IMG/VR virus record: IMGVR_UViG_2541047852_000009
From: a virus
Taxonomy: Duplodnaviria; Heunggongvirae; Uroviricota; Caudoviricetes
Length of the DNA: 41,802 nt
Strand: one strand, 5' to 3'
In this document: positions 27,432 to 38,200 of the stretch, one piece after another
How positions within the stretch are numbered: position 1 is the stretch's first letter
Layout: the number at the start of each line of letters is the position of its first letter
Notes under the pieces: generated by a model
Database searches by the model: none
The model's input: only the letters and a program-made list of their open reading frames with translations
What the model was told of the DNA's origin: nothing
Program-made: the position numbers and the translations under genes

Positions 27432-27922
27432 GAATCCTCCCGGCCGGGATAATATTGTGAGTAAAATAAGGAGCGGGCTGAAGTCCGGAAGTTACAGGAC
27501 AATGGCAGAAGAGAGACGACAGCCCGCAATTCGAAAAAGGCCACGCAGTTGCGCAGCCTTATGAATTCTGGTTAAAATCCATTCGATTATAAAAATGTAT
27601 ATCTCATGCTGTTGCCCGAACCCACTCGGTTTTTTTTTGCCCACAAGAAAGCCCCTCCGGAGAGGGGCTAAAGCCGCGTATCTGTATCATCATGCACATG
27701 GTGCCGGGTGCCTCCCGGTGAGTTCAGTATCAGCACCTGAACCCGCACAGAAAGGATAAGGGTCGGTGACAAAACACCAGTCGCTGATTGCCCCTCCGCA
27801 CAGGGGGATTCACCATGCCAGTTTCTTTTAACAAACTCCCCGCAAAACAGACAACTGTCAACCGTCTGAATTGTGAGACATTTAAAAAAAAGCCCGCAAA
27901 AGCGAGCCGGGAAAAATAAGTC

Positions 27923-27999
27923 TGGCGCGTTGTACTGGATTCGAACCAGTGACCGATTGCTTAGAAGGCAATTGCTCTGTCCGGCTGAGCTAATAACGC
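27923..27999 (-). tRNA. tRNA-Arg (anticodon TCT), phage-encoded
   Basis: Hand-folded cloverleaf, 77 nt: anticodon loop cTTCTAa, T-loop TTCGAAT, 3' CCA encoded; one A-C mismatch in the acceptor stem. Confidence 0.75.
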
Positions 28000-28012
28000 A
28001 GGGTACAGATAA

Positions 28013-28089
28013 TGGACCGCCATCGAGGACTCGAACCCCGCGCAACCAGCTTCGAAGGCTGGCGCTCTATCCTGATGAGCTAATGGCGG
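28013..28089 (-). tRNA. tRNA-Arg-like (anticodon TCG by hand fold)
   Basis: 77 nt: acceptor ccgccat/atggcgg, anticodon stem ccagc/gctgg with loop cTTCGAa, T-loop TTCGAGT, CCA encoded; unusual C1 start. Confidence 0.6.
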
Positions 28090-28096
28090 TATGTGA

Positions 28097-28172
28097 TGGT
28101 GGCCCTTGCTGGATTTGAACCAGCGACCTAGCGATTATGAATCGCTCGCTCTCACCACTGAGCTAAAGGGCC
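28097..28172 (-). tRNA. tRNA-Ile2/Met (anticodon CAT), ileX/ileZ-like
   Basis: 76 nt: acceptor ggccctt/aagggcc, anticodon loop tTCATAa, T-loop TTCAAAT, CCA encoded; closely resembles E. coli tRNA-Ile(LAU). Confidence 0.8.
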
Positions 28173-34532: not shown

Positions 34533-34765
34533 GCCACACCTCCCAGACGCTTAAACATTTTTCCGGAGCAAAAGGCTATAAGCGGCATACTGACGCGGTA
34601 ATTACGGCCCAGCGGTTCACAAACCACCTTCTGACATTCACGGTCAACCAGGCTAACACGTAGAACATGCCCTGCAGGCGTGGTGTACCACTGCCCAACT
34701 GTAGGAATTGATGTTTTTTTACGCTGAAGAAAACGGCAAATATTGAGAATCAACGGATTAAGCAT
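34529..34765 (-). CDS. Hypothetical protein
   Basis: 78-aa ORF, translationally coupled within the early-right operon. Confidence 0.35.
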   Translation of the reverse strand: MLNPLILNICRFLQRKKTSIPTVGQWYTTPAGHVLRVSLVDRECQKVVCEPLGRNYRVSMPLIAFCSGKMFKRLGGVA

Positions 34766-35594
34766 GACGATGCCCTCCGCTGATATTAAGGAGACGGTGA
34801 ATATGAAAATTAGCCTTATCCGCCAGACGAATACGTTCAGCCTGCAAGTTAAGAAGGGTTTCTACCAGAACCTGATGTGCCTGCGGATCCGAAAGAGTTA
34901 CCTTGCGCAGAGCACGTAGTGCAGTTGTTACATAACTGAGTTTATGTAAGTCGTCATCATTCAGACGAGAGAGGGCTGGGACAGTAGCCATGATGGCAGC
35001 CTCCGTATGCAATGGATAACTTCCACCACCGGAAACGCCAATTTCGCTGGTGGTGAACTGAGCAGGGTTGGCGTAACCGGCGCATACGGAAACCGGCGCA
35101 CCTTTCGGTGCCCCCACCCAGCCCACCATAATTTGGGTATAGCTGAGTTGTAGCAACAAAAAAGACGCTAACGCGCCAATTGTCGCCGTATGCAATTCCA
35201 GGACGCCAATCCCGGCACCCGCTTTATAAGGTGCCTGAACAGTGTAACGTCCCGGAATGGCAGAATCAATGTGCTGGTGGTCCTTCACACTCAACAAAAT
35301 CACGCCTGAATTTCCACAAAGGACTAAAGCACTCATGCGGGTAGTCTTTGCGAAGATAGATAACGCGCTGTGTTTCTGGCTCCCAACGAATAACATGGAC
35401 ATAAAGCCCTCTTCCGTCACGAAACCAGCGGTTAAGTTCCTGCACAACTCGCCCCCCACAGTCAGGTAAAGTTCTCTGTGGTTACTTACAGCCAGGTGAT
35501 TTGGTAATCTGCATTCATGCCGTAACAACAGGTGTTCAGCGACACTGACCACCAGCTGTTGCGACAAACGATTATTTGCCGTTAAACTGTTCAT
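34758..35594 (-). CDS. Conserved prophage protein (YdaU-like, tentative)
   Basis: 278-aa ORF directly downstream of the cII/YdaT-like gene, the position YdaU holds in Rac; no recognisable motif. Confidence 0.35.
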   Translation of the reverse strand: MNSLTANNRLSQQLVVSVAEHLLLRHECRLPNHLAVSNHRELYLTVGGELCRNLTAGFVTEEGFMSMLFVGSQKHSALSIFAKTTRMSALVLCGNSGVILLSVKDHQHIDSAIPGRYTVQAPYKAGAGIGVLELHTATIGALASFLLLQLSYTQIMVGWVGAPKGAPVSVCAGYANPAQFTTSEIGVSGGGSYPLHTEAAIMATVPALSRLNDDDLHKLSYVTTALRALRKVTLSDPQAHQVLVETLLNLQAERIRLADKANFHIHRLLNISGGHRHA

Positions 35595-36185: not shown

Positions 36186-36386
36186 TTAATCTTTCGGATA
36201 GATATCCGGTCTTAAGTCAGATTTCGTAATTGCACCTGACGTGCATTGCTCAAGTTTTTTAGCCAGCACAAAACTGGCTTTTTTATAACCATTGAAAACC
36301 AGCCGTAAGTAGCCTGGTGTTGAGCCAACTTTTCCGGCCAACTCGCCCTGCTGTTCTTTGGTTAAAGAGTCCCAATACGCTTTCAT
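36186..36386 (-). CDS. cro: Cro-like HTH repressor (YdaS-like)
   Basis: 66 aa from ATG 36386 (MKAYWDSLTKEQQGELAGKVGSTPGYL...); divergent from cI; the listed ORF start at 36410 would cover an operator palindrome. Confidence 0.6.
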   Translation of the reverse strand: MKAYWDSLTKEQQGELAGKVGSTPGYLRLVFNGYKKASFVLAKKLEQCTSGAITKSDLRPDIYPKD

Positions 36387-36402
36387 ACAATATGTACCTC
36401 CG

Positions 36403-36460
36403 ATGTACATATTACATGATTAAAATGAACCTTCAAGATACTTGTACCTTAACGGTACAA
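36403..36460. promoter_or_regulatory. Immunity-region operators and divergent promoters
   Basis: Palindromes ATGTAcatatTACAT (36403-36417) and TTGTACCttaacGGTACAA (36442-36460) between the cro and cI starts; outer inverted repeat AATGAA...TTCATT. Confidence 0.45.
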
Positions 36461-36476
36461 GGGTTTTAATTTCATT

Positions 36477-37151
36477 ATGAAAACAGTCCATGACATCCGG
36501 CGGTCTAACGCCAGAAAACTGAGAGATGGTGTTGGCGGGAATTCTTCCTTTGCCACCATGATTGATCGCGAGCCAACCCAGACCAGCAGGTTTATGGGAG
36601 ATGGTGCTACTAAAAATATCGGTGACAGCATGGCACGGCACATCGAAAAATGTTTCGACCTGCCTGTCGGATGGCTTGATCAAGAACACCAGACAACAAA
36701 CATCACAAAAAAACCTGATGTTTCAATTACTAACAAACAAATAACGTTAGTCCCTGTCATATCATGGGTACAGGCCGGAGCATGGAAAGAAGTTGGCTAT
36801 TCTGAGGTTGATTTGAGCACAGCAGAAACTTATCCCTGCCCTGTACCCTGTGGCGAAATGACTTATATCTTGCGGGTGATTGGTGATTCAATGATTGATG
36901 AGTACCGCCCGGGAGACATGATTTTTGTAGATCCTGAAGTCCCTGCCTGCCACGGTGACGACGTTATTGCATTGATGCACGATACAGGCGAAACCACCTT
37001 TAAGCGGTTGATAGAAGATGGAACACAGCGTTACCTCAAAGCATTAAACCCAAACTGGCCTGAACCTTACATTAAGATCAACGGTAATTGCTCTATAATT
37101 GGTACAGTAATTTTCTCAGGAAAACCAAGAAGATACAAAATAAAGGCCTAA
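36477..37151 (+). CDS. cI: cI-type repressor (N-terminal HTH, C-terminal S24 LexA-like autopeptidase)
   Basis: 224 aa; Ala-Gly cleavage site in VQAGAW; catalytic Ser in GDSM and Lys in TFKRL. Confidence 0.85.
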   Translation: MKTVHDIRRSNARKLRDGVGGNSSFATMIDREPTQTSRFMGDGATKNIGDSMARHIEKCFDLPVGWLDQEHQTTNITKKPDVSITNKQITLVPVISWVQAGAWKEVGYSEVDLSTAETYPCPVPCGEMTYILRVIGDSMIDEYRPGDMIFVDPEVPACHGDDVIALMHDTGETTFKRLIEDGTQRYLKALNPNWPEPYIKINGNCSIIGTVIFSGKPRRYKIKA

Positions 37152-37162
37152 TCAATATTTAT

Positions 37163-37186
37163 AACCTGCTTCGGCAGGTTTTTTTA
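37163..37186 (+). terminator. Rho-independent terminator after cI
   Basis: cctgc ttcg gcagg followed by TTTTTTT. Confidence 0.6.
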
Positions 37187-37189
37187 TAC

Positions 37190-37222
37190 TTGACAATGTA
37201 CCCTTGAGATACATAATGTATC
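37190..37222 (+). promoter_or_regulatory. Early-left (pL-analogue) promoter with overlapping operator palindrome
   Basis: Consensus -35 TTGACA (37190-37195), 16-nt spacer, -10 CATAAT (37212-37217); perfect palindrome GATACATAATGTATC (37208-37222) over the -10. Confidence 0.5.
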
Positions 37223-37223
37223 T

Positions 37224-37700
37224 AAAAGAAACATGTCACAGGCAAGATTAAACAAAATTTGGTTGTAACACGGCGTATGGCACATGCGTCGTTAGCGGTC
37301 TGGGGACGTTAAAGGGGACAATCCACTCCTTGCTCGGGCAAACAAACCAGGTAGCCGGAATGTGCAAGTCAATGATGATGCTGATAAGACGCCTAACCAG
37401 CGTGGCGGTTCGGTTTGACACCTGGGAAGAGACCAGGGTGCAACGATGAGGGCATTTATGGAACCGCGACAAAGTGTGGTGCCGTAACTGGCTAAGTGCT
37501 CTCAGCGTTGTGGTGAATGCGCAGGCTGATGCGCGAAAGACATTGCAGCTATTGCGGAAAAGAGCTGTTCGGCGGGGCAATTAAACGCCCGTGAGAGTCT
37601 GAAATAACCGCAAGCCGGAGATCAGCACCGGTCACCACAACAGCCACTGCTTTGGCGGTACCAGTTTGTACACTTGCTTCCGGCTGGTACCGCTCTTTTT
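37224..37700 (+). ncRNA. Candidate long untranslated leader / ncRNA (~480 nt) ending at an internal intrinsic terminator
   Basis: No plausible ORF on either strand; extensive inverted repeats; ends at the terminator 37655-37700. Confidence 0.3.
37655..37700 (+). terminator. Strong intrinsic terminator inside the early-left leader
   Basis: Perfect 10-bp inverted repeat GCGGTACCAG (37655-37664) / CTGGTACCGC (37684-37693), 19-nt loop, then TCTTTTT. Confidence 0.55.
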
Positions 37701-37837
37701 ACAAAACAGAGAAGAGCATCACCGGACGACGGGCTCATAACCCAATCCATCCGGGCGGCTGCCACCGCAGGTGTTCTTCTCTGTTTTGTGGAGAAACTAA
37801 CCGACCTTACAGGGTCGATATGATGAGGAGCAGCAAA

Positions 37838-38200
37838 ATGGCTAGCGAACGCAGTACTGATGTGCAGGCATTTATCGGGGAGCTGGACGGCGGCGTATTT
37901 GAAACCAAAATCGGCGCAGTTCTCAGTGAAGTCGCTTCCGGTGTGATGAACACGAAAACCAAAGGTAAGGTCTCACTCAACCTGGAAATCGAACCATTTG
38001 ATGAGAACCGTGTGAAAATCAAACACAAACTCTCATATGTTCGCCCGACTAACCGCGGGAAAATTTCCGAAGAAGACACCACCGAAACGCCGATGTATGT
38101 CAATCGCGGTGGTCGCCTGACTATTCTGCAGGAAGACCAGGGACAATTACTGACTCTTGCCGGTGAACCTGACGGAAAACTCCGCGCAGCAGGTCATTAA
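37838..38200 (+). CDS. YfdP-like early protein
   Basis: 120 aa from ATG 37838 with GAGGAG RBS; first gene of the early-left operon; resembles the CPS-53/KplE1 yfdP position. Confidence 0.55.
   Translation: MASERSTDVQAFIGELDGGVFETKIGAVLSEVASGVMNTKTKGKVSLNLEIEPFDENRVKIKHKLSYVRPTNRGKISEEDTTETPMYVNRGGRLTILQEDQGQLLTLAGEPDGKLRAAGH

Follow-up and report, generated by a model that had tools for sequence, protein, structure and literature searches.

We analyzed the DNA between the repressor gene cI and the first early-left gene of a prophage represented by IMG/VR virus record IMGVR_UViG_2541047852_000009. The whole stretch, hereafter the window, is 41.8 kb long (41,802 nucleotides [nt]), and the interval under study comprises 686 bases, from the cI stop codon to the first early-left gene. 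The prophage is an Escherichia coli lambdoid of the SfV/mEp460/cdtI type that lacks the N gene, and at least part of the interval is present in 2,947 of 5,426 complete E. coli genomes, with 100% identity in E. coli HS13-1. We found that the interval is not a single leader RNA. It consists of five consecutive modules, here called A, X, B, T, and C, which are conserved as autonomous units in many unrelated phages. Folding of the entire interval gave a z score of only -1.6 and became informative once the sequence was split into these modules. An earlier interpretation made from the letters alone (the sequence-only reading) had described one untranslated structured RNA of about 480 nt; its non-coding character and its conservation as folded RNA hold, whereas its unity does not, because A, X, B, and T are independently distributed. 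The promoter and the modules, with their proposed helices, are as follows.

37190-37217, plus strand: pL-type sigma-70 promoter, TTGACA (37190-37195), 16-nt spacer, CATAAT (37212-37217)
37197-37222: candidate OL operator, a TGTACC-N6-RTACA site TGTACCCTTGAGATACA (37197-37213) overlapping a palindrome of 15 base pairs (bp), GATACATAATGTATC (37208-37222)
37271-37437, plus strand: module A, structured RNA of ~170 nt beginning ~47 nt after the inferred start
37271-37276/37286-37291, plus strand: A stem I
37280-37285:37360-37365, plus strand: A PK1, proposed pseudoknot GCACAU:AUGUGC
37298-37303/37347-37352, plus strand: A stem II, surrounding a variable domain and followed by the invariant strand GGUAGCCGGAAUGUGCAAG
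37389-37392/37400-37403, plus strand: A hairpin III
37395-37398:37412-37415, plus strand: A PK2, proposed pseudoknot CACC:GGUG
37421-37425/37433-37437, plus strand: A hairpin IV, loop GAAGAGA
37441-37510, plus strand: module X, long stem CAACGAUGAGGGCAUUU / AAGUGCUCUCAGCGUUG enclosing a variable insert
37507-37641, plus strand: module B, kissing-loop cassette scaffold
37507-37514/37634-37641, plus strand: B closing stem (helix P1), GAAU after the first strand
37519-37523/37530-37534, plus strand: B hairpin H1, GCGCA-GGCUGA-UGCGC, loop GGCUGA
37535-37613, plus strand: B variable insert
37614-37618/37628-37632, plus strand: B hairpin H2, GCCGG-AGAUCAGCA-CCGG, loop AGAUCAGCA
37654-37700, plus strand: module T, 13-bp stem (37654-37666/37682-37694), 15-nt loop, then UCUUUUU (37694-37700)
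37698-37792, plus strand: module C, 23-bp helix with a small three-way junction cap, starting within the U-run of T

The promoter matches 11 of the 12 consensus positions, and its sequence is the same in phage Ayreon and nearly the same in SfV. The near-consensus TTGACA-16-CATAAT element and its palindrome GATACATAATGTATC are thus present as the sequence-only reading had described them. The motif TGTACC-N6-RTACA occurs at three sites in the window, where 0.03 would be expected by chance; the other two sites, at 36393 and 36443, lie in the cI-cro intergenic region, and at least four matches were seen in none of 100 shuffles. Judged by its sequence, the copy in the promoter spacer is a better operator candidate than the 15-bp palindrome. 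Because this operator motif is shared with the cI-cro sites and lies inside the promoter spacer, the promoter is under repressor control, which confirms its earlier identification as the pL/OL of an N-less lambdoid prophage. Transcription from it probably starts near 37224. For the same reason, namely that the operator sits within the promoter, the suggestion that the RNA is made in lysogens is unlikely to be correct.

Between the presumptive start at ~37224 and the ATG at 37838, we found no credible open reading frame (ORF) in 614 nt, consistent with the long ORF-free stretch noted previously. The sole long ORF (37248-37580, minus strand, 110 amino acids) has no PHROG family match, and none of the frames stays open in a majority of the 103 homologous loci, the best one doing so in 36. 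The window contains no N ORF with an arginine-rich motif and an accompanying boxA-boxB of the lambda N/nut kind. The relatives also carry no N-like gene at this position, a possibility that had been named as grounds for refuting a non-coding leader. SfV has at the equivalent position an unrelated ORF of 98 amino acids followed by an STnc100-like RNA, between pL and the T-C module. Small hypothetical proteins have been annotated over A, X, and B, on either strand, in mEp460 (locus L002, 2462-2830 and 2872-3015) and Ayreon (locus L001, 2679-2798 and 2900-3094); none of them is conserved as an ORF. Such annotations in database records are what could be said for a decayed coding region, for example a dead N-like gene, or an inert spacer. 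To this explanation we assign next to no probability, since no frame is conserved, no protein family is matched, conservation follows RNA helices with compensatory changes, and the modules recur in unrelated phages. The covariation in modules A and B, together with the frame survey, refutes it.

Copies of module A were gathered by scanning IMG/VR for its invariant strand GGTAGCCGGAATGTGCAAG, and the counts given here for A apply among the matches listed. In 25 diverse copies, the six proposed helices (31 pairs) are paired in 97.8% of alignment cells, compared with 26-48% when the partners are slid; 11 pairs vary on both sides, and the observed values were reached by none of 500 shuffles. The second pseudoknot, PK2, has one covarying pair, CACC/GGUG having changed to AACC/GGUU in the lineage of the window. 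PK1 is invariant in all aligned copies and hence gives no covariation signal, so that its pairing is a prediction only. At 63 of 124 A sites, a cI-type gene precedes A in the same orientation, and in 52 of these 63 the A motif is found 173-235 nt past the cI-type stop codon. The repressors group into at least 10 clusters with less than 50% identity to one another. We propose that, in this group of N-less temperate phages, module A usually comes first among the elements of a pL transcript. It is also found beside tRNA genes: a tRNA-Arg(UCU) gene lies ~165 nt downstream on the same strand at 22 or more unique sites, and a tRNA-Ile2(CAU) gene ends ~95 nt upstream, again on the same strand, at 12 or more. 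A scan for terminators downstream of A copies found them in 35 of 102 cases, versus 9 of 102 on the opposite strand; we did not use this figure, which is a lower bound, since the 31 sites with a T motif and the 22 with tRNA-Arg suggest that the scan underestimates. Modules A and X had no Rfam match, riboswitch families included, at the gathering score over the whole window or at E <= 5-10 in three sub-windows.

The minimum-energy fold of module B yields the closing stem, H1, and H2, and the covariance model built here (R1) scores the window copy at 74.9 bits. The loops of the two hairpins are complementary, GCUGA (37525-37529) facing UCAGC (37622-37626). To collect copies, IMG/VR was scanned for the 20-mer GAATGCGCAGGCTGATGCGC, which gave at least 120 loci and 94 unique copies; about nine genome matches to the 20-mer lay inside a conserved protein gene and lacked the remaining scaffold, and these were discarded. 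All 94 copies have a constant layout: the first strand of the closing stem, GAAU, H1, an insert of ~25-200 nt, H2, one or two C residues, and the second strand of the closing stem. The closing stem occurs as 46 different 8-nt sequences and is paired over at least six contiguous bp in 85 of the 94 copies. In an alignment of 50 sequences, both partners vary in each of its eight pairs, and pairing holds in 94.9% of cells versus 24-47% with slid partners; the observed scores were found in none of 500 shuffles. When copies were gathered by H2 instead, the stem of H1 was seen to covary (GAGCA/UGCUC, GCGUA/UACGC, GCCCA/UGGGC) around the constant loop GGCUGA. Both loop sequences, GCUGA and UCAGC, are invariant, so the 5-bp loop-loop pair is predicted only. 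Two sister cassettes likewise have complementary loops, GUGC/GCAC in STnc100 and AUGG/CCAU in Ayreon; by a rough post-hoc estimate, which serves as an argument and not as a test, three such complementarities would arise by chance with a probability of ~6e-5.

The comparison with Ayreon shows how the cassette is exchanged. Ayreon and the window are ~99-100% identical in A, X, T, and C, while in Ayreon the interior of B has been swapped for unrelated sequence, with the replacement bounded exactly by the strands of the closing stem. The replacement folds into the layout of B, again with complementary loops. At the 31 unique sites belonging to this lineage, the B type is present 10 times and the Ayreon type 21 times. 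Module X (fold of -25.9 kcal/mol, z = -3.2) behaves similarly, its stem being kept while its insert changes: other inserts are present in a relative, locus L200, and tRNA-like inserts are present in RCS47 and Magnus. The GUUG at 37507-37510 forms both the last 4 nt of X and the first 4 nt of the B closing stem. With the bases shared in this way (37441-37445, 37506-37514, and 37634-37641), the adjacent helices are mutually exclusive over 4 bp. In arrays such as that of RCS47, the CAAC that ends the B closing stem is also the sequence that opens the next X.

Several inserts of the B scaffold resemble known RNAs. One locus (L111, 7101-7176) has a tRNA within the insert, scoring 40 bits with the Rfam tRNA model; another (L012, 3701-3779, minus strand) has a hammerhead-like core with a Hammerhead_HH9 score of 28.2 bits, which is below the gathering score; and a third (L098) has an insert with the T-arm-like sequence GGGTTCGAATCCCGCC. 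The window copy of B has no Rfam match, and 19 diverse B loci returned only tRNAs; neither ARAGORN nor the Rfam tRNA model found a tRNA in 37150-37840. We considered whether B itself is a tRNA mimic and rejected this, because only 36 of 85 copies encode a CCA after the closing stem. A relationship to the T4 species 1 and 2 RNAs was also rejected, the B model missing both T4 rnaC and rnaD. Species 1 RNA (rnaC, 1409-1547 of locus L431) ends in a perfect T-arm, CCGGGTTCGAATCCCGG, and this end resembles the tRNA-like X-stem inserts of RCS47 and Magnus, not module B. The K-12 core small RNA RydB (714-781 of locus L433) contains GCCGGAGAUAAGCGCCGG, nearly the H2 of B (37614-37631), between CCCC and GGGG; we do not regard it as a relative, because only the H2-like hairpin is common to both and RydB has no counterpart of H1.

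The strong intrinsic terminator reported at the end of this stretch is module T. Its perfect 10-bp stem (37655-37664/37684-37693) can be extended to 13 bp, its fold has an energy of -21.2 kcal/mol (z = -4.8), and its stem covaries in L200, where GGUACC/GGUACC becomes GGUGCC/GGCACC. T is kept in SfV and in the K-12 e14 element with a divergent loop, aligns to the STnc100 terminator, and, in relatives, closes the STnc100-like unit at its 3' end. A possible rrn/lambda boxA in the terminator tail, CGCUCUUUUUACAA, was rejected, as the boxA-like appearance is lost in SfV. The second 13-bp inverted repeat that had been noted before the first gene's ribosome binding site is likewise present, as the perfect core of longer, 25-nt arms (37701-37725/37765-37789) that build the 23-bp helix of module C (-59.4 kcal/mol, z = -6.5). 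C also precedes SfV orf32 and e14 xisE, where base changes have kept its pairing, and in readthrough transcripts the helix is a candidate target of RNase III.

By BLAST against phage records, window positions 37257-37434 are ~79% identical to P1, P7, D6, and SJ46; in phage P1, module A stands alone, directly after trnI and before ban. Positions 37270-37513 are ~82% identical to epsilon15-like phages (phiV10, TL-2011b, and O157 typing phage 9), in which the match ends exactly at a tRNA-Arg gene. Positions 37494-37642 are 96% identical to the P1-like phages RCS47 and JL22, and RCS47 has B alone, just after tRNA-Asn and tRNA-Thr. Positions 37653-37837 match SfV, SfII, and e14. A 42-nt core of B is found at ~90% identity in lytic phages of Klebsiella, Erwinia, Cronobacter, and Edwardsiella belonging to several families. 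Full B scaffolds with a paired closing stem occur in gamma-, beta-, alpha-, and delta-proteobacterial genomes, their hosts including Klebsiella, Pseudomonas, Xanthomonas, Burkholderia, Massilia, Rhizobium, Pelagibacterium, and Geobacteraceae; they were also found in a few metagenome-assembled genomes of other phyla, possibly through binning errors. Contigs bearing A have 40-60% G+C and are enterobacterial-like, and those bearing B reach 65% or more. Among the matches listed, the modules agree in strand with a nearby tRNA gene in 43 of 43 copies of A and 19 of 20 copies of B. No protein family accompanies B across the 120 bacterial loci and 136 viral sites listed, the largest group being the cI-type repressor. 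Phage P1 (locus L004) also has two plus-strand matches to the B model, at 306-411 (66.7 bits) and 567-694 (21.8 bits), with counterparts in RCS47 (locus L006) at 1941-2046 and 2202-2330. The P1 matches are located between its tRNA genes and tciA, on the strand opposite to that of two annotated genes, plp and upl. These two ORFs may be annotation errors that stand for RNA genes, or they may simply overlap such genes.

The closest known counterparts of B followed by T are STnc100 and PasD, small RNAs of enterobacterial prophages. The two are described as related RNAs that act by base pairing, with seed regions that differ and terminators of the Hfq type (bioRxiv 10.64898/2026.05.13.724894). STnc100 has the same layout as B+T, consisting of a closing stem, (G)AAU, a hairpin, a variable middle, a second hairpin, the closing stem, a spacer, and an intrinsic terminator; both RNAs have complementary hairpin loops, are prophage-borne, and sometimes adjoin tRNA genes. 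B differs in its hairpin sequences, in its position in the pL leader instead of the late region, and in its conservation far beyond the enterobacteria. The window also has a genuine STnc100 (27639-27847, minus strand; 136.6 bits with Rfam RF02076). Three tRNA genes, Met-CAT, Arg-TCG, and Arg-TCT, immediately precede it (27639-28172, minus strand). The SfV scaffold, with T included, scores 39.5 bits with the STnc100 model, for which the gathering score is 47 (E = 1.7e-7 in a small search), and 20.1 bits with the B model (E = 1.4e-3); it looks chimeric, with the 5' end of B and the 3' hairpin of STnc100. The e14 copy (730-951 of locus L432, under the annotated gene ymfH, T included) reaches a sub-threshold 29.2 bits with STnc100, and ymfH may not be a protein gene. 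DicF (RF00039, gathering score 48) scores 28.5 bits on the e14 terminator and 15.7 bits in SfV. DicF, which belongs to the Qin prophage, is released by cleavage from an early operon; like the proposed B+T RNA, it is a small RNA in a prophage early operon with an intrinsic terminator at its 3' end, and it differs in being a 53-nt RNA without a scaffold. B+T is therefore a positional and architectural equivalent of an STnc100-type RNA and not a family member by gathering score.

The interpretation to which we give an even chance is that the interval from pL to the early-left genes is a polycistronic array of non-coding RNA modules in which B+T acts as a small RNA. When the repressor leaves the operator, pL would transcribe a 47-nt leader followed by A, X, and B in turn. 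Most transcripts would end at T, giving a primary non-coding RNA of ~475 nt from the probable start site to the U-run, a slight correction of the ~480 nt proposed earlier. This RNA would be cut at long stems into stable pieces, X being one likely point of nuclease entry and C another in readthrough RNA. The B closing stem and the two hairpins with complementary loops would clamp the variable insert, so that B+T would form a small RNA in the style of STnc100, PasD, and DicF. The insert would be the part that bears specificity, either as a base-pairing seed or, elsewhere, as cargo such as a tRNA or a ribozyme. Readthrough of T would carry transcription through helix C into the early-left genes and down to xis and int. 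What the sequence analysis itself shows is the promoter and operator, the lack of coding, the RNA folds, the modularity with its exchange of cassettes, and where the families occur; the efficiency of termination, the processing, the trans-acting function, and any binding by Hfq or ProQ are what we infer from this architecture.

A number of points weigh against this interpretation. The 5' and 3' ends of the RNA, its processing, and its abundance are deduced from the DNA. Searched at thresholds as permissive as E <= 10, B+T of the window (37490-37705) matched neither STnc100 nor DicF, so the apparent link to STnc100 consists of architecture, synteny, and one bridging sequence. The U-run of T, UCUUUUU, is short for a classical Hfq-dependent small RNA. 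Hairpins that are nearly invariant across proteobacterial classes point to a conserved partner, for which simple seed pairing is an inadequate explanation. Module A, the most conserved part of the interval and the one most tied to pL, is assigned no function. Finally, no separate promoter is obvious for the early-left genes, so some mechanism must pass T, and the small-RNA interpretation relies on the leakiness of the terminator.

The main rival explanation is that A is a cis-acting, put-like processive antiterminator. Its nascent RNA would fold just past pL, bind the transcribing RNA polymerase, take it through T and later terminators, and so replace N, with X and B as passengers. We consider this unlikely. 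The known RNAs to compare with are HK022 putL and putR and the HK639 putL-like RNA; A agrees with them in position, since in a lambdoid phage without N no structured RNA comes between it and pL. HK022-type put suppresses termination via the zinc-binding domain of the RNA polymerase beta-prime subunit. The strands of A stem I are the same as those of stem I in both putL RNAs (ACGGCG ... AUGCGUCG). Put is ~70 nt long with two stems (PMC9378689), whereas A has ~170 nt, four helices, and two likely pseudoknots; A also lacks the conserved put stem II core GGCGGG.UCAGGA.GA.CGGCAAU, has a different second half, and, unlike put, occurs beside tRNA genes in P1-like and epsilon15-like phages. Put-like antitermination had been suggested for the interval; membership in the put family itself fails, as stem I alone resembles putL. 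Apart from this stem, an antiterminator role is favored by the position of A, ~47 nt past the likely start and 173-235 nt after cI-type genes of at least 10 repressor clusters, by the missing N gene, and by the placement of T between pL and genes without a promoter of their own. The epsilon15-like order of promoter, A, tRNA, terminator, and co-directional gene also fits, and if A had a conserved protein as its partner, RNA polymerase for example, the invariant single strands and pseudoknots would be as expected. Set against this, SfV and e14 keep T-C upstream of similar genes without A, the A of phage P1 sits mid-operon directly after a tRNA gene, the remainder of A is unlike put, and the proposed role of A comes from sequence and predicted structure. 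An aptamer in A that senses a ligand or factor and decides whether T forms, as in a conditional attenuator or riboswitch gating the early-left operon, would likewise account for an ornate, pseudoknotted, and highly conserved element in a 5' leader before an intrinsic terminator. This version, which the sequence-only reading had entertained, strikes us as very improbable. Exchangeable cassettes of 196-216 nt separate A from T at the 31 unique sites with both, so that alternative pairing cannot couple them; A is also found without a following terminator, as in phage P1, and has no Rfam riboswitch match.

Alternatively, the modules might serve as decoys or mimics directed at a conserved host or defense component; they would be produced immediately upon infection or induction, with the invariant hairpins as bait and the insert secondary. 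Proposed targets are tRNA-processing or tRNA-targeting enzymes, RNases, and RNA-sensing immunity. The exact conservation of the hairpins in unrelated phage types and in alpha- to delta-proteobacterial hosts, the modules within tRNA gene arrays, and the tRNA or tRNA-like inserts inside scaffolds would all agree with this, and the lack of a consistently linked phage protein gene would point to a partner in the host. We nevertheless think it improbable: neither ARAGORN nor the Rfam tRNA model sees the scaffold as a tRNA, encoded CCA is inconsistent (36 of 85 copies), and tRNA adjacency is confined to a minority of copies.

Other known phage RNAs are less similar. The lambda N/nutL leader and the present interval both lie between pL/OL and the early-left genes, and in each a long helix precedes the first gene; the interval differs in having no N ORF and no convincing boxA/boxB. 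The lambda N leader has an RNase III site. GOLLD, ROOL, and the T4 species 1 and 2 RNAs are likewise phage non-coding RNAs beside or enclosing tRNA genes, with no sequence or model similarity to the modules and no Rfam match between them, and the modules are much smaller. We found no paper describing the exact hairpin sequences, A, or the B scaffold in a literature whose coverage is incomplete, and nothing on this locus in work on phage structured RNAs, ymfH, or mEp460/SfV. Neither A nor the B scaffold is present in Rfam 15, and the already known kinds nearest to the locus are prophage small RNA units and pL leader RNAs.

Whether A and the kissing-loop scaffold (B, with the STnc100 and Ayreon types as sisters) are two undescribed and widespread classes of phage RNA is a question on which we lean, by a little, toward caution. 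If they are, the scaffold may be a general RNA cassette holder whose inserts are small RNA-like sequences, tRNAs, or a hammerhead-like ribozyme. Such cassettes may be swapped between siblings at the closing stem and may be common to temperate and lytic phages across the Proteobacteria. Module A may be the first pL RNA of N-less temperate enterobacterial phages and possibly a new RNA antiterminator; as such, it could represent, beside put, a second class of antiterminators made of RNA alone. This would explain what the N-less phages of the SfV/mEp460/cdtI/Stx2c type, very common as prophages, hold where lambda has N. It would also mean that STnc100, PasD, and perhaps DicF-like terminators belong to a much larger modular RNA system. 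As a natural and compact RNA that accommodates inserts of ~25-200 nt, among them tRNAs and a ribozyme-like sequence, the scaffold could be of interest for RNA engineering. RNA genes are probably mis-annotated among "hypothetical proteins" such as mEp460_037, e14 ymfH, and perhaps P1 plp and upl.

The remaining features at the locus flank the modules.

36186-36410, minus strand: cro-like gene
36477-37151: cI, Peptidase_S24 repressor
37163-37186, plus strand: cI terminator, hairpin AACCTGC-TTCG-GCAGGTT (37163-37180) followed by a T-run, end of the immunity transcript
37802-37807/37812-37817, plus strand: small hairpin before the first early-left gene
37825-37830 and 37838, plus strand: ribosome binding site GAGGAG and ATG of the first early-left gene, phrog_204 (a family of unknown function)

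The first early-left gene has alternative starts at ATG 37820 and 37823; only the ATG at 37838 has a good ribosome binding site, and the phrog_204 profile alignment begins at residue 57 of the extended ORF. To the right of the interval are DUF2303, an HD-domain gene, DUF551, and the integrase, and to the left are a CII/CP76-type gene and an Ash-family gene. A C4 antisense RNA (80.7 bits) and isrK (61.2 bits) lie adjacent to each other at 35046-35234 on the minus strand, inside an annotated Ash-family "immunity region" ORF of 278 amino acids (34758-35594). This region looks like a second immunity or anti-repressor control region of the P1 immI kind.

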